A stretch of 31,544 nucleotides of DNA, taken from the NCBI GenBank assembly GCA_964650025.1, contig CAZYSZ010000002.1, forward strand, positions 1 to 31,544, given 5' to 3'. A program made the position numbers and the translations under genes. Shown here in pieces: positions 674 through 30,983 of the stretch; the first letter of the stretch is position 1; each line of letters opens with the position of its first letter. Origin of the DNA: an uncultured Candidatus Saccharibacteria bacterium. Lineage in GTDB: Bacteria > Patescibacteriota > Minisyncoccia > Minisyncoccales > Staskawiczbacteraceae. The notes below the pieces were generated by a model. It did no database searches. It was not told the DNA's origin and worked only from the letters and a program-made list of their open reading frames with translations.

Positions 674-798
674 AAATTCAAAATTATAAATCCCAAATAA
701 ATTACAACTACCAAAATCTAAATACAAAAATGTGTTTTAGATTTAAGTTTTGGGATTTGAGTATTATTTGGAGCTTGTAATTTTGAATTTGGAGCTTT
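674..798. repeat. Periodic hairpin element, family A (AT-rich, about 7-nt units)
   Basis: Left arm aaattcaaaattataaatcccaaataa and right arm ttatttggagcttgtaattttgaattt are reverse complements at 23/27; centre aaaatgtgtttt; related to 2251-2382. Confidence 0.85.
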
Positions 799-804
799 AT
801 TTAA

Positions 805-2250
805 TTATAACATCTTTTCAAGCTCCGATGCTACGGCGAGTATTTTATTATCCTCAAACCGGTTCCCGATAATCTGCAAACCCACCGGCAGTTTTCCTAT
901 TTTCCCAACCGGTAATGACAGTGCCGGAATGCTCGCCAACTTTACGGCTACGGTATAAACGTCAACCAAATACATAGAAAGCGGGTCGCTGGCTTTTTCA
1001 CCAACTTTAAAAGCTGGAAACGGAGCCACGGGTGAAAAAATAACATCTACCTTTTTAAAAGCCTCTGCAAAATCCTCTTTTAGTAACTCGCGGACTTCCT
1101 GGGCTTTTTTGTAATACGCATCGTAGTAGCCACTCGAAAGTGCGTAGGTTCCGATGATAATTCTGCGTTTAGGTTCGGCGCCAAAACCGACTCCCCTGCT
1201 TTGCAAATAAACATCCAGTAAATTATGCGCCTCTTGTTTGCTTAATCCGTATCTTATGCCATCAAACCGCGCTAAATTTGCTGATGCTTCACAGGGAGCA
1301 ATAATATAATAACAAGCCACCGCCAAATCAGTGTTGGGCAAACTAATCGGTACGATTTTAGCACCGGCACCTTCAGCTTTTTTAATAACGTTTTTGATTA
1401 TTTTTTCAACCTCCGGGTCAATACCTTTAGCAAAATACTCCTTTGGCACTCCAATTTTTAATCCTTTTAGGTTTGTGATTTGTGATTTGTGATTTGTGAT
1501 TTCCACACTCGTGGCATCCATCGGATCCTTGCCACAAATGGCCTCGAAGACAATTTTTGCGTCTTCCACGTTTTTGGTAATCGGCCCGATTTGGTCAAGC
1601 GAAGAAGCAAAAGCAATGGCTCCATACCGCGAAACCGCGCCGTAGGTAGGGTTTAACCCCACAACCCCGCAAAATGATGCGGGCAATCTAATTGACCCTC
1701 CGGTATCAGACCCCAATGAAAAAACGGCCTGGCGACCTGCCACGGATGCCGCCGGCCCGCCAGAACTTCCGCCCGCCACGCGCGTTACATCGTGGGGATT
1801 GCGAGTCACCTTAAATGCCGAGTTTTCCGTAGAAGCGCCCATGGCAAATTCGTCCAAATTAGTTTTTCCCAAAATCACCGCACCTTGCTTTTTTAGTCGC
1901 ACAATAACCGTCGCATCATATGGCGCCACATAGTTTTCCAAAATTTTGCTTCCAGCCGTCGCCTGCTGGCCCTCCACCAAAATATTATCTTTAATTGCAC
2001 AGGGAATTCCACAAAGTAAAGGAAAATCTTTTCCAGACCCTTCGGCTCCGCTCAGGACAAGAGAAATAATTTTGTCGGCTTCAATTGCCTGCTCCAACGC
2101 CAACTTTTCAGTAACTGCCAAATACGCCCCGATCTTGTCATCGGTTTTCTTAATTTGCTCCAAATAAGCTTTCGTAACCTCAACCGAAGTAAACTGCTTT
2201 TTTTTGAAGCCGTCGTGAAGCTGGGTGATTGTGAGATCTAATAGATTCAT
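805..2250 (-). CDS. gatA: Asp-tRNA(Asn)/Glu-tRNA(Gln) amidotransferase subunit A
   Basis: Amidase signature GKTNLDEFAMG, GGSSGG, GSDTGGSIRLPAS and RYDG-like RFDG; adjacent to gatC. Confidence 0.97.
   Translation of the reverse strand: MNLLDLTITQLHDGFKKKQFTSVEVTKAYLEQIKKTDDKIGAYLAVTEKLALEQAIEADKIISLVLSGAEGSGKDFPLLCGIPCAIKDNILVEGQQATAGSKILENYVAPYDATVIVRLKKQGAVILGKTNLDEFAMGASTENSAFKVTRNPHDVTRVAGGSSGGPAASVAGRQAVFSLGSDTGGSIRLPASFCGVVGLNPTYGAVSRYGAIAFASSLDQIGPITKNVEDAKIVFEAICGKDPMDATSVEITNHKSQITNLKGLKIGVPKEYFAKGIDPEVEKIIKNVIKKAEGAGAKIVPISLPNTDLAVACYYIIAPCEASANLARFDGIRYGLSKQEAHNLLDVYLQSRGVGFGAEPKRRIIIGTYALSSGYYDAYYKKAQEVRELLKEDFAEAFKKVDVIFSPVAPFPAFKVGEKASDPLSMYLVDVYTVAVKLASIPALSLPVGKIGKLPVGLQIIGNRFEDNKILAVASELEKML
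1472..1502. repeat. Four perfect tandem TTTGTGA heptamers inside gatA
   Basis: tttgtga x4 + ttt; read in frame as ITNHKSQITN. Confidence 0.9.
2038..2061. repeat. REP-like short element in frame inside gatA
   Basis: cccttcggctccgctcaggacaag; minus strand cttgtcctgagcggagccgaaggg encodes LVLSGAEG; resembles, from recall, the dispersed CCTGAGC...CGAAGG repeat type. Confidence 0.55.
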
Positions 2251-2382
2251 AAATTACAAATTCAAAATTACAAGCTCCAAATAAATTACAATAGTTAAAA
2301 TTTAAATTCAAAACGTGTTTTAGATTTTGAGTTTTGAAAATTGAGATTTATTTGGGATTTGTAATTTTTAATTTGGTGCTTT
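2251..2382. repeat. Periodic hairpin element, family A
   Basis: Left arm aaattcaaaattacaagctccaaataa is the exact reverse complement of the right arm at 764-790; centre aaaacgtgtttt; fills the gatC-gatA spacer. Confidence 0.85.
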
Positions 2383-2384
2383 CG

Positions 2385-2669
2385 TTAAAGTATCGCCTTA
2401 ACCTTAAAATATCCGTCCTTTTTATCCGGCGCCTGCGCCACCAAATTATTCGCCAAACTCGCTGGCCTTTCCATAACTTCATCTTTTCGCAATCCGTACG
2501 ACGTCGGACGTCGTACAACTTTTTCTTTTTTCAATTTCGGTGCTTTTTTAAGCACCATAAAATAATCCAAAATCGCCGACAAATCCTTTTGCATTTTTTC
2601 CGTTTCTTTCTCCGTCAACTCGAGCCTCGCCAACTTAGCAATATGTTTTACGTCGTCTTTTGAAATCAT
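2385..2669 (-). CDS. gatC: Amidotransferase subunit C
   Basis: MISKDDVKHIAKLARL N-terminus, ...DGYFKVKAIL C-terminus, 94 aa, upstream of gatA. Confidence 0.95.
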   Translation of the reverse strand: MISKDDVKHIAKLARLELTEKETEKMQKDLSAILDYFMVLKKAPKLKKEKVVRRPTSYGLRKDEVMERPASLANNLVAQAPDKKDGYFKVKAIL

Positions 2670-2675
2670 TTTGAA

Positions 2676-2714
2676 AGCGACACTAATTTACTAATTACAT
2701 TCGAATCTACTAAT
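2676..2714. repeat. Family D single arm (39 nt)
   Basis: agcgacactaatttactaattacattcgaatctactaat is similar to 12758-12796. Confidence 0.8.
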
Positions 2715-2747
2715 TACTGTAACAAAATTGTCAGCCCAATAAAAGAC

Positions 2748-29390: not shown

Positions 29391-29396
29391 GTTTAC

Positions 29397-29426
29397 ATAC
29401 TACCACTTTCCTTTAAAAATTTACAA
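29397..29426 (-). promoter_or_regulatory. tpiA promoter, leaderless-type
   Basis: TTGTAA-18-TAGTAT with extended TG; ATG 6 nt downstream. Confidence 0.6.
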
Positions 29427-29427
29427 C

Positions 29428-29454
29428 AAAAAAAGCCCCGCTATACGCAAGACT
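29428..29454 (-). terminator. Intrinsic terminator after map
   Basis: Minus strand agtcttgc-gtata-gcggggct-tttttt with G-U pairs. Confidence 0.65.
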
Positions 29455-29455
29455 A

Positions 29456-30202
29456 TTACTTTTGAGTTAATACTCGGCACCCGTCGCGGGTTATCGCCAC
29501 CGTGTGTTCAAAGTGAGCTGAAAGCGATCCGTCGCGAGTGGTAAAACCGTAACCATCAGTTGATCTTTTTAAGTCATAAGCCCCCATTGTCACCATCGGC
29601 TCAATGCAAATTACCATCCCCTCTTTTAATTCGGTACCCGTGTCGCGCTTGCCAAAATTGGGTACATACGGCCCTTCATGAACCTGCCTGCCAATGCCAT
29701 GGCCATATAAATCGCGCACTATGCCAAATCCTTGGTCTTCAATAAAACGCTGAATGGTGTTACCAATATCACCGGTTTTAACTCCCGCACGCGCCTTTTT
29801 AATACCCAGTCGCAAACCTTTTTCGGTCACTTTTAATAATCGCCTTGCTTCAAAAGAAATTTCGCCAACAGCCACGGTCATGGCCATATCAGTATTAAAA
29901 CCTTTATACAAAACCCCCAAATCCAGCCCAACAATATCGCCATTTTTTAATTTGTAATCCGACGGATACCCATGCACCACATTTTCGTTGACGGAAGCGC
30001 ACAAAGAATAGGGGAAGCCTTGATACCCCTTAAACGCTGGCTTGGCGCCCATAGCCAAAATCAAGGTCTCAGCGGTCATGTCTAATGCTAAGGTGGTAAT
30101 TCCGGGCTTGGCCATATCTGCAATTTGATGCAATACGGTTGCCAGAATTTTCCCACCCTCGACCATGATTTTTATTTCCTCTTCGGTTTTTATAGAAATC
30201 AT
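29456..30202 (-). CDS. map: Methionine aminopeptidase, type I
   Basis: SVNENVVHG, DLG, GHGIG..VHEGP, IEPM and AHFEHT. Confidence 0.97.
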   Translation of the reverse strand: MISIKTEEEIKIMVEGGKILATVLHQIADMAKPGITTLALDMTAETLILAMGAKPAFKGYQGFPYSLCASVNENVVHGYPSDYKLKNGDIVGLDLGVLYKGFNTDMAMTVAVGEISFEARRLLKVTEKGLRLGIKKARAGVKTGDIGNTIQRFIEDQGFGIVRDLYGHGIGRQVHEGPYVPNFGKRDTGTELKEGMVICIEPMVTMGAYDLKRSTDGYGFTTRDGSLSAHFEHTVAITRDGCRVLTQK

Positions 30203-30912
30203 GTTTCCAAGATCTTTAAAATCTGCTCATGCACCTCGGCCACACTTCCTTCCCCATTAATTTTATTGATATTAAACTTGTTGTCTTTAAAGTAATCAAA
30301 GAGTGGCAAAGTTCTTTCTTTATATTGCACCAAGCGGGTTTTAATGGTTTTTGGGTCATCCAATCCTTGACGTTTTACCAACCTTGATCCATCTATCGGA
30401 CACAAAGTCAATATTTCCGTTTCTTTATTATGCAAGATAGAGTGACGCATCAATTCGCAGATTTTGCGTTTGGAATTTCGCAACGCCGTGGTCTCACCTG
30501 AAATTTCAAGCAACATAATTTTGATATTTTTTTTGCCAAACAGTTTTTCCAACAACGGCATTTCTTTTTTGGCTTCATACACAGTACGCGGGGAACCCGA
30601 CATCATGAGGCTCTCCCCATCATCAAAGATACGCTGGATTTCACGCATAATTAACATGGTGGCAAACGGCGGGCTGGTTAGAATTCCCTTTTTCCAATTA
30701 TCCATTTCCACCAGCACATCAAAGCGCTCGCCAAAACATTCAATGAATCTTTCCGGGGAATCTGCCGAAAGTTTTTCAAACTTTTTAAATTCCCGTTCAA
30801 TAATTTTACTGCTCTCAAGCGAAAACAACCCGAATTTTTCGGTTAACAGCTCCGACTGCGTCCCTTTCCCCGCCCCCGGCGGCCCAAATAAAATAATAAC
30901 TTGCTTTGCCAT
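30199..30912 (-). CDS. adk: Adenylate kinase family protein (start revised to MAKQ)
   Basis: P-loop GPPGAGKGTQ, GSPRT, LID region, DD...RL..Y; overlaps the map start (ATGA) as in the canonical adk-map order. Confidence 0.9.
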   Translation of the reverse strand: MAKQVIILFGPPGAGKGTQSELLTEKFGLFSLESSKIIEREFKKFEKLSADSPERFIECFGERFDVLVEMDNWKKGILTSPPFATMLIMREIQRIFDDGESLMMSGSPRTVYEAKKEMPLLEKLFGKKNIKIMLLEISGETTALRNSKRKICELMRHSILHNKETEILTLCPIDGSRLVKRQGLDDPKTIKTRLVQYKERTLPLFDYFKDNKFNINKINGEGSVAEVHEQILKILET

Positions 30913-30920
30913 ATGTCTCA

Positions 30921-30983
30921 AAACTTAAAGCTTGAAACTTGAAGCTTTTTTAAAAAAGTTTAAAATTTTAGGATTTAAGTTTA
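30921..30983. repeat. Periodic hairpin element in the predicted adk leader
   Basis: aaactta aagcttg aaacttg aagcttt ... aagttta aaatttt aggattt aagttt. Confidence 0.75.

Follow-up and report, generated by a model that had tools for sequence, protein, structure and literature searches.

The gaps between genes in the 31,544-nt stretch of DNA analysed here (the window) contain about 19 short elements whose arms are built of tandem 7-nt words. The window is contig C2 of a 720-kb genome assembled in 87 contigs and 93.6% complete; its relatives by RpoA are Candidatus Staskawiczbacteria (Parcubacteria, within the Patescibacteria or candidate phyla radiation, CPR), the nearest protein being about 80% identical. 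Families of these elements are dispersed over the whole genome, and some copies enclose a gene of the family PF05635, the 23S-rRNA intervening-sequence protein or S23p. The elements are probably selfish palindromic DNA resembling the intervening sequences (IVS) of rRNA, mostly gene-less, some decayed or reduced to a single arm. Several observations carry this reading: gene-bearing and gene-less copies share arms; a whole element has recently been duplicated; elements have been gained and lost among species; and species that diverged deeply carry near-identical copies, though not at the same junction.

Heptamer-armed elements and the PF05635 gene

The window inventory comes from reading every intergenic gap, together with Tandem Repeats Finder (TRF) and an inverted-repeat scan. 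It holds elements of 35-150 nt, with arms of 7-nt words or, in one family, 8-nt words; period 7 dominates the 46 TRF rows. The word families are CTAGGGn, CATGnnn, AAATTCn/AAATTAC, AAACTTG, AGTGAGTAG/CTACnnA and ACGTTnn, to which an 8-nt GAACnnnn family and a GCGAC...GTCGC family are to be added. When 18 elements were folded as DNA against 200 dinucleotide shuffles, 11 gave z <= -3.6; five fold weakly (those beginning at 7220, 19905, 21609, 21795 and 30915; z -1.1 to -1.8), and at 2677-2722 and 10325-10359 there is a single arm instead of a hairpin. An earlier note on this DNA had proposed about 20 elements of 60-155 nt, mostly hairpins: the number and the prevalence of hairpins stand, while the sizes run lower and the weak folders and single arms have to be admitted. 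Its picture of unrelated words sharing one 7-nt architecture and recurring at a distance agrees with what is seen in the gaps: 6011-6106 and 21120-21218 share 80 of 96 positions, 7220-7298 and 21609-21692 share 64 of 79, and the arms of the GCGAC family agree over 39-40 nt at 90-95% identity. The view that this architecture points to a common system is upheld, as is the expectation that the families would be found across the genome, would exceed shuffled DNA in 7-nt autocorrelation and would match no described Rfam model. At gathering score Rfam gave no match to the window elements; at E <= 1 there were chance sub-threshold matches only, none of them to Gut-1.

Across the genome, intergenic identity at lags of 7, 14 and 21 nt is 0.294, 0.290 and 0.285, against 0.272 +- 0.0015 in shuffles, and 7 is the commonest tandem period (190 of 660 non-redundant arrays). 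There are 213 long ungapped hairpins, 164 of them intergenic, where a shuffled genome has one. Nearly half of the intergenic pieces (253 of 578, 44%) share at least 35 nt at 80% identity or more with another piece; 14 window gaps have between 1 and 36 partners elsewhere, and copies 85-93% identical over 80-92 nt, loops included, lie at many loci. Period-7 arrays have a mode at 4.0-4.9 units (122 of 260), whereas periods 8 and 9 simply decay, and 146 of the 260 are intergenic even by crude ORF (open reading frame) calls. A 4-nt palindrome, of the kind that the CTAG and CATG cores bring to mind as restriction sites, is present in 135 of 260 heptamer units, a count without a shuffle baseline. The 5' arms are rich in purines on both strands (128:63). 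The median distance from stop codon to hairpin is 20 nt with crude ORF calls, and therefore no sharp distance rule emerges.

The genome has nine PF05635 matches, eight of them outside C62, a contig with a unit resembling a diversity-generating retroelement (DGR). In six cases the gene, or what remains of it, is enclosed by inverted heptamer arrays, each with its own word family: full-length gene-bearing elements on C31 (two), C12, C8 and C4, and a decayed copy on C21. The full form measures about 490 bp. None of the window copies bears the gene. Two window hairpins of the CTAGGGn family correspond to arms of the C31 elements, 21120-21218 to the 5' arm at 35/40 positions and 6011-6106 to the 3' arm at 30/32 positions, and the 3' arm of the C8 element matches the CATG family at 19905-20006 at 26/28; where gene-bearing elements have the ORF module, the CTAGGGn hairpins have a short GC-rich apex. 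From these arm matches it follows that some window hairpins are gene-less relatives of gene-bearing elements. The association extends to related genomes, in which nearly all of 29 PF05635 homologues lie, judged by eye, between inverted tandem arrays; at these loci 19/31 arms per side have at least three in-phase cores and almost none has more than five.

The PF05635 proteins of this genome are mutually 21-55% identical, and arm words are held in common only by proteins at least 60% identical. Co-divergence of protein and arm is weak (Mantel r 0.15, 54/2000 permutations) and driven by those pairs. The C31 protein is homologous to pentameric XCC0516 (2gsc, E 8e-23), and the five-unit size of the arrays fits a pentameric reader. 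TRAP reads repeats in RNA; a PF05635 pentamer might in a parallel manner read about five 7-nt words, one per subunit, and drive the copying or maintenance of the arms, an idea that we put forward as tentative and rather doubtful. The same facts can be turned to a different account, in which an oligomeric protein, the PF05635 pentamer being the candidate, would find on each arm a pad of some five sites, and the arrays are nucleoid or global-regulator sites. The mode of array size, the rarity of more than five cores beside PF05635 genes, the homology to a pentamer and the private word of each diverged paralogue (29-55% identity) all favour such pads, and the inverted four- or five-heptamer elements of Geobacter have been read as regulator sites (PMC2700814). 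Set against this, the binding is putative, being read from sequence; abundant families have no cognate gene in this genome; and translated arrays in essential proteins would be odd for regulatory sites. Binding pads seem quite improbable.

Two gene-bearing elements, C31:1257-1745 and C31:4333-4821, are identical at 489 of 489 positions, each spanning TGA stop to ATG start; their flanks are unrelated, and the identity includes the non-repetitive ORF and its leader. The first follows the same upstream gene as does a homologue, 79% identical, from a different species (L095). At the junction occupied by the second, at least three other genomes (L112, L114, L116) have PF05635 elements of another word family.

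Six junctions from S13 to S9 were compared in 34 relatives. Spacers are mostly of 0-30 nt or of 55-230 nt, strong structure marking the long class (median z -5.1, 71 spacers). A junction without any element in many relatives is taken up in others by families unrelated to each other, the presence/absence polymorphism that the earlier note had proposed as a check. With similarity set at an alignment score of at least 60, 28/535 genome pairs have similar elements at one and the same junction, and 22/2212 have them at different ones. The top-scoring pair joins the window's L17-L13 element (18601-18709) to one between S13 and S11 in L019 (score 136, about 90% identity by eye over about 105 nt), and the family of 20577-20666 recurs between L13 and S9 in L007. 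In RpoA, four-fold degenerate sites have reached saturation (0.40 identity across the six genomes measured), so that such similarity of elements calls for recent spread or else for an element that is itself strongly constrained. The family of 18601-18709 reaches a metagenome word depth of 1275 against about 30 for its flanks (about 40x), which fits a family common to many members of the community. Among related genomes, PF05635 copy number rises with occupancy of ribosomal-operon junctions (rho 0.57, p 4e-4, phylogeny uncorrected): occupancy is 0.18, 0.33 and 0.75 for genomes with at most one, two to four, and at least five PF05635 genes.

A selfish element of this kind would consist of two arms, each of some four to five tandem 7-nt words, and in its full form would bear the gene for a four-helix-bundle protein in the loop, the whole occupying a stop-to-start gap of a protein operon. 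It would copy itself to other gene junctions, possibly aided in trans by the PF05635 protein. It may be tolerated because it carries no terminator and leaves the neighbouring reading frames intact; terminator calling found no window heptamer hairpin to be terminator-like, and placed ordinary GC-rich terminators elsewhere in the window. By analogy with rRNA intervening sequences, the long stem, once transcribed, might be cut by RNase III, a gene for which is present in the genome. Slippage-type homogenisation, together with correction of one arm from the other, would preserve periodicity and arm complementarity at the DNA level, and the same homogenisation would make the heptamer arrays found in weakly constrained protein loops.

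Possible homogenisation in place and possible host function

Several observations weigh against selfish copying. No target-site duplication was seen bounding the two identical C31 copies. Contigs from three metagenome runs of the same strain match the window exactly except for breaks at repeats, and show no filled/empty or unit-number variant, although contigs hide rare variants. The abundant AAATCCG, AAAATTC and AAATCAC families have no gene-bearing copy, in a genome of 93.6% completeness. PF05635 has, to our knowledge, no known catalytic activity, and no DNA-moving enzyme was found linked to the elements. The correlation of load with PF05635 copy number, uncorrected for phylogeny as it is, would also be expected if the gene were mere cargo. 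Two further points, the behaviour of a loop in GatA and the conservation of the element between S4 and RpoA, are the foundations of other explanations.

Candidates for a linked enzyme were at hand. The earlier note had suggested a transposase of the HUH type related to RAYT (repetitive extragenic palindrome-associated tyrosine transposase), and the genome has four Y1_Tnp genes, on C4, C26, C11 and C6. Heptamer arrays border none of the four, and the link was rejected; the RAYT-like genes at C4:6526-7293 and C26:4043-4750 are flanked by GC-rich nested palindromes of their own, and the gene that is linked to the arrays is PF05635. The single reverse transcriptase belongs to the DGR-like unit (C62:1-1370), with an Avd-like gene, and was likewise rejected as the machinery, nothing connecting that unit to the hairpins. 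The Y1/palindrome and DGR-like units are repeat systems separate from the heptamer hairpins.

Heptamer arrays also occur in frame inside genes. Genome-wide, 62 lie deep within long ORFs, and ten array-bearing ORFs that were sampled all encode housekeeping proteins: LeuRS, a class I aminoacyl-tRNA synthetase (aaRS), a Mur ligase, GatB, UvrA, Mfd, LigA, TsaD, an ATP synthase subunit and TopA. The window has two, both on the minus strand: an AAATCAC array of 4.4 units in GatA (1472-1502; 100% matches in TRF; peptide EITNHKSQITN) and an AAACTTG array of 4.6 units, also found by TRF, in triosephosphate isomerase (TPI; 29221-29252; peptide VSSFKFQASSL). The arrays are not restricted to gaps, these coding ones lying outside any junction. 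In agreement with the earlier note, the block 12960-17600 showed no heptamer element, a description and not a tested rule. The GatA array sits in a native loop. Among 21 orthologues of the genus, lag-7 identity of this loop is graded from 0.17-0.43 (non-periodic) to 0.92 (perfect array), with differing words and nearly constant length, a series demonstrating that such arrays can originate in place and need no insertion. TPI too has no net insertion, since PF00121 covers residues 4-243 of its 245. The in-gene arrays point to homogenisation by changes templated 7 nt away, wherever constraint is weak.

From here it is a short step to a pure mutational by-product: a slippage bias at 7-nt offset, with templated correction between arms, would produce everything in place, nothing would move, and PF05635 would be there by coincidence. 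Besides the coding arrays, the absence of strand asymmetry in folding, the missing target-site duplication and the fast turnover of arm words relative to the protein are congenial to this idea. In-place homogenisation, its best argument, cannot explain identical whole elements at unrelated sites such as the 489-bp C31 copies; the 85-93%-identical copies at many loci and the elements about 90% identical at different junctions of species with saturated synonymous sites are equally foreign to it, as is an array size with a mode at 4.0-4.9 units in place of the steady decay of periods 8 and 9. A by-product without movement is, on balance, unlikely.

The other foundation is the S4-RpoA element, which in six genomes keeps 78% identity, against 0.40 at the four-fold sites of RpoA, with an invariant apex and compensatory changes in 6 of 29 pairs; covariation, which the earlier note had thought worth seeking, is thus present in this one element. 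Its conservation could reflect host function and not selfishness. The elements would then be cis-regulatory RNA, kept by host selection as intercistronic signals for processing, stability or translation coupling. A preference for co-directional junctions is shown by strongly heptamer-periodic hairpins (33/440, the figure for convergent or divergent junctions being 4/143), whereas hairpins of all kinds are equally frequent at convergent and divergent junctions, which speaks the other way.

Two features of gene starts belong to the same argument. A GAA-triloop mini-hairpin, (C)TTTTRC-RAA-GYAAAAG, occurs at window 18603-18619 and at five other loci of the genome, 2-5 nt before the ATG and always directly after the 3' arm of a heptamer element; the window copy lies 2 nt before the L13 start, and A-T pairs are replaced by G-C pairs among the copies in a compensatory way. 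Further, genes that start after a heptamer hairpin, for example at 6010, 18600, 19060 and 21119, have no Shine-Dalgarno sequence when read by eye; AGGAGG-like sites precede the genes at 2818, 17114 and 31151, none of which follows a heptamer hairpin.

The strands themselves give a different answer. For 81 hairpins of this genome the sense RNA folds at -27.8 and the antisense at -28.8 kcal/mol; for 71 operon spacers the values are -29.0 and -29.2 kcal/mol (split 34:36); and in neither data set are G-U pairs enriched on the sense strand. Selection on the mRNA strand was rejected for want of bias in folding or in G-U counts, and the mRNA-processing role suggested earlier draws no support from strand asymmetry. 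A junction that is empty in many relatives and taken by unrelated families in others is also hard to reconcile with a host signal. A search for sequencing runs, of any kind and not dedicated to RNA, listed only DNA runs as holding the sequence. As a general explanation cis-regulatory RNA is distinctly unlikely, and yet the conservation and compensation of the S4-RpoA element, together with the mini-hairpin before start codons, keep host function in contention for some of the elements.

The elements in the window and their neighbours

The genes of the window are nearly all housekeeping genes: GatC and GatA, two MreB, a class II aaRS, an RseP-like protease, RRF, HolB, a MurA-like enzyme, AlaRS, TPI, Map, Adk and the run IF1-S13-S11-S4-RpoA-L17-L13-S9; no tRNA or tmRNA was found in it. 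The first element, a hairpin of AAATTAC and AAATCCC words, lies between ORF 112-660 and GatA (661-804; -26 kcal/mol, z -5.5) and has four partners elsewhere in the genome, with up to 83 nt at 86% identity. Alignment assigns to the same family the hairpin at the GatC-GatA junction (2251-2384; z -6.0; nine partners). The lone GCGAC-family arm at 2677-2722 has no partner arm (z -0.03) and is 90-95% identical over 39-40 nt to other copies. Between MreB and the class II aaRS is an AAATTCT array with a weak hairpin (4646-4759; TRF period 7, 4.4 units; z -2.0), and from the stop of the RseP-like gene exactly to the start of the aaRS runs the CTAGGGn hairpin that matches the C31 3' arm (6011-6106; z -7.0). 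RRF and RseP are separated by a weak hairpin of 8-nt period with GAACnnnn and GTTTTTTA words (7220-7298; TRF period 8; z -1.1), and HolB and RRF by a hairpin of CATGAAA words with period 7 in TRF on both arms (7845-7940; z -4.3). The word of the latter resembles by eye the arms of the C8 PF05635 element, for which the scored match is 19905-20006.

A second single GCGAC-family arm, 92-95% identical over 39-40 nt to other copies, lies beside two terminator-like stems at 10325-10359. An AT-only AAAAATT hairpin from the inverted-repeat scan separates the MurA-like gene from MreB (11376-11490; z -3.6); judged by eye, its words are like those in the arms of the PF05635 element on C12, with an alignment below threshold. 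The GCGAC...GTCGC hairpin is complete at 12755-12852 (z -6.0; eight partners). In the ribosomal-protein run, a TTCGGAT/ATCCGAA hairpin carrying the mini-hairpin described above stands between L17 and L13 (18601-18709; z -4.0). A GCGAC hairpin followed by a GCGAAGC mini-hairpin stands between RpoA and L17 (19061-19155; inverted-repeat scan; z -4.05); this GCGAAGC type (19061-19070), with one example on C46, takes the same role as the triloop form after two elements of the GCGAC family.

Between S4 and RpoA, the CATG-word array (6.1 units in TRF) with its weak hairpin (19905-20006; z -1.3) overlaps the RpoA start. RpoA itself (19152-19946, minus strand) has only 264 aa and no Pfam match for the alpha C-terminal domain, and its annotated first 7-9 residues come from the heptamer array and are unmatched in most relatives. 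The S11-S4 junction has a AGTGAGTAG/CTACTCA hairpin from the inverted-repeat scan (20577-20666; z -4.3), the true start of S4 being near 20576. The CTAGGGn hairpin with the C31 5'-arm match follows between S13 and S11 (21120-21218; z -5.4), and the weak 8-nt-periodic hairpin that aligns with 7220-7298 lies between IF1 and S13 (21609-21692; z -1.4). Beside the IF1 stop is an ACGTTnn, GCGC-rich hairpin (21795-21866; z -1.8) with words similar to those in the arms of the PF05635 element on C4, the best score of 39 being below threshold. An AATTAGn hairpin between AlaRS and ORF 24594-25970 (25927-26075; z -7.5) matches the arms of the decayed C21 element at 55/68 and 24/26 positions. The last element, a palindrome of AAACTTG words upstream of the adenylate kinase gene, comes from the inverted-repeat scan (30915-30990; z -1.4).

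Other structures and repeats occupy the window beside these. A region of about 145 nt at 3421-3564 (plus strand), between ORF 2818-3303 and MreB, has an 18-bp closing stem and two inner hairpins, an RNA fold of -77 kcal/mol (z -7.35) and no Rfam match; it is a candidate small RNA. A perfect 34-nt palindrome followed by a T run at 13529-13562, between NUDIX and DUF218 genes, sits in a stretch reaching 52% G+C (13001-14000) and has the look of a terminator, not of a heptamer element. At window 8649-8684, C12:192, C29:6723, C8:3928 and C5:13890 there are palindromes, perfect or nearly so, with GACGG/CCGTC at the centre; their arms vary among copies yet remain complementary, and one copy is within coding region 7934-8839. 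At 10254-10287 there is a GC-rich repeat of the type GTCATTGCGAG...GGCAATC. GTCATTGCGAG occurs 43 times in the 720-kb genome, and the metagenome word depth of the repeat exceeds 3600 against about 25 for the flanks, so that the repeat is evidently common to many organisms of the community. Finally, the opening 53-55 nt of the contig recur at 100% identity in several other intergenic pieces, and for the gap 1-111 as a whole 36 partners were counted.

Comparison with known repeat systems

Candidate-phyla bacteria have genomes among the smallest and most compact known; here the repeats are widespread in a very compact CPR genome and reach the core of the ribosomal-protein operon and the loops of essential enzymes. 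They have practical consequences as well: they break assemblies (contig ends here and breaks of same-strain public contigs fall on repeats), distort start-codon calls (S4 and RpoA in this case) and create pseudo-insertions in phylogenetic marker proteins. The tie to PF05635 supplies a testable partner for three puzzles: rRNA intervening sequences, the role of S23p and the build-up of heptanucleotide repeats. If the tentative idea of a PF05635 pentamer that reads the words is true, the PF05635 family, rRNA intervening sequences and heptanucleotide repeats would be one kind of mobile element with a non-transposase mechanism, and would take in the heptanucleotide repeats of cyanobacteria, Xanthomonas, Geobacter and the Patescibacteria.

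The phrase 'undescribed system', used earlier, was too strong, given published heptamer arrays in Geobacter (PMC2700814) and Xanthomonas (PMC4692102) and the Coxiella IVS (PMC4990558). What this genome adds is the arms shared by gene-bearing and gene-less copies, the identical duplicated element and the near-identical copies across saturated divergence. In the literature searched, no description of these hairpins in Patescibacteria was found, and none linking heptamer arrays generally to PF05635; PF05635 genes wedged in cas operons have been noted without explanation (PMC3936711).

The closest comparison is with the ORF-bearing 23S rRNA IVS. In the helix-45 IVS of Coxiella burnetii, an ORF for S23p goes together with a stem of 28 bp, GACAGAT heptamers in tandem and excision by RNase III (Warrier et al. 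2016, PMC4990558); GACAGAT stands three times beside the ORF, and the heptamer number varies with the strain. In the ORF-bearing IVS of Leptospira and Coxiella the ORF has decayed in some copies, and mobility has been proposed with its mechanism unknown (PMC4990558). The present elements likewise place a PF05635/S23p gene in the loop of a long stem formed by terminal inverted repeats, have tandem heptamers adjoining the ORF and show decay of the ORF in some copies. They differ in that all copies seen lie between protein-coding genes, including those of the S13-S11-S4-RpoA-L17 operon, and not in rRNA, where an IVS occupies helix 25 or 45 of the 23S gene, although this assembly has no large-subunit rRNA in which rRNA copies would be visible; in arms made wholly of heptamers; in being mostly gene-less; and in the presence of several diverged families in 720 kb. 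RNase III cuts out the IVS, whereas the present elements are known from DNA.

The heptanucleotide repeats of other bacteria form a second group. Geobacter metallireducens has inverted pairs of four or five tandem heptamers, mostly intergenic and also within genes, of which class 3 sites can form stem-loops (PMC2700814). Xanthomonas has 70-75 convergent inverted pairs of GGGAATC, capable of forming stem-loops (PMC4692102), and the TAACTGA heptamers of the Beggiatoaceae are direct repeats (PMC4679880). The function of such elements is unknown, and a connection with mobile elements was not found by Rehm et al. The Geobacter and Xanthomonas elements, and the short tandemly repeated repetitive (STRR) sequences of cyanobacteria, have in common with ours the tandem 7-nt units, about four to five per array, and the mostly intergenic position. 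The STRR heptamers were reportedly described by Mazel and colleagues in 1990; their consensus words, which we take to be CCCCAGT, TTGGTCA and CAACAGT, are absent among the 60 commonest of 85 canonical heptamer units here. The present repeats are set apart from heptanucleotide repeats elsewhere by different words, many families per genome and a patescibacterial host, and some copies enclose a protein gene, of which the Geobacter, Xanthomonas and Beggiatoaceae papers report none.

Repetitive extragenic palindromic (REP) sequences, with their bacterial interspersed mosaic element (BIME) and REP doublet hairpin (REPIN) arrangements, are GC-rich imperfect palindromes associated with the HUH/Y1 transposase RAYT (Bertels and Rainey 2011, PMC3116915). 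Like these, the present elements are families of short extragenic palindromes, dispersed 60-150-nt hairpins often inside operons, with a dedicated single-copy gene flanked by its own repeats. Unlike REP, the arms are periodic heptamer arrays and not one GC-rich imperfect palindrome, and unlike RAYT, the flanked gene encodes a four-helix-bundle protein and not an HUH/Y1 transposase.

Rickettsia palindromic elements (RPE), reported, we understand, by Ogata and colleagues in 2000, are said to lie in frame within housekeeping proteins, in tolerant loops. Repeat-derived sequence is in frame in the loops of housekeeping proteins here too, but the intragenic pieces are single arrays of 30-33 nt and not whole palindromes, and the GatA and TPI arrays replace native loop without added length, apparently arising in place. 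As to miniature inverted-repeat transposable elements, the inverted arms and the gene-bearing partners are present; no duplication is seen where the two C31 copies end, and the partner gene is not a known transposase.

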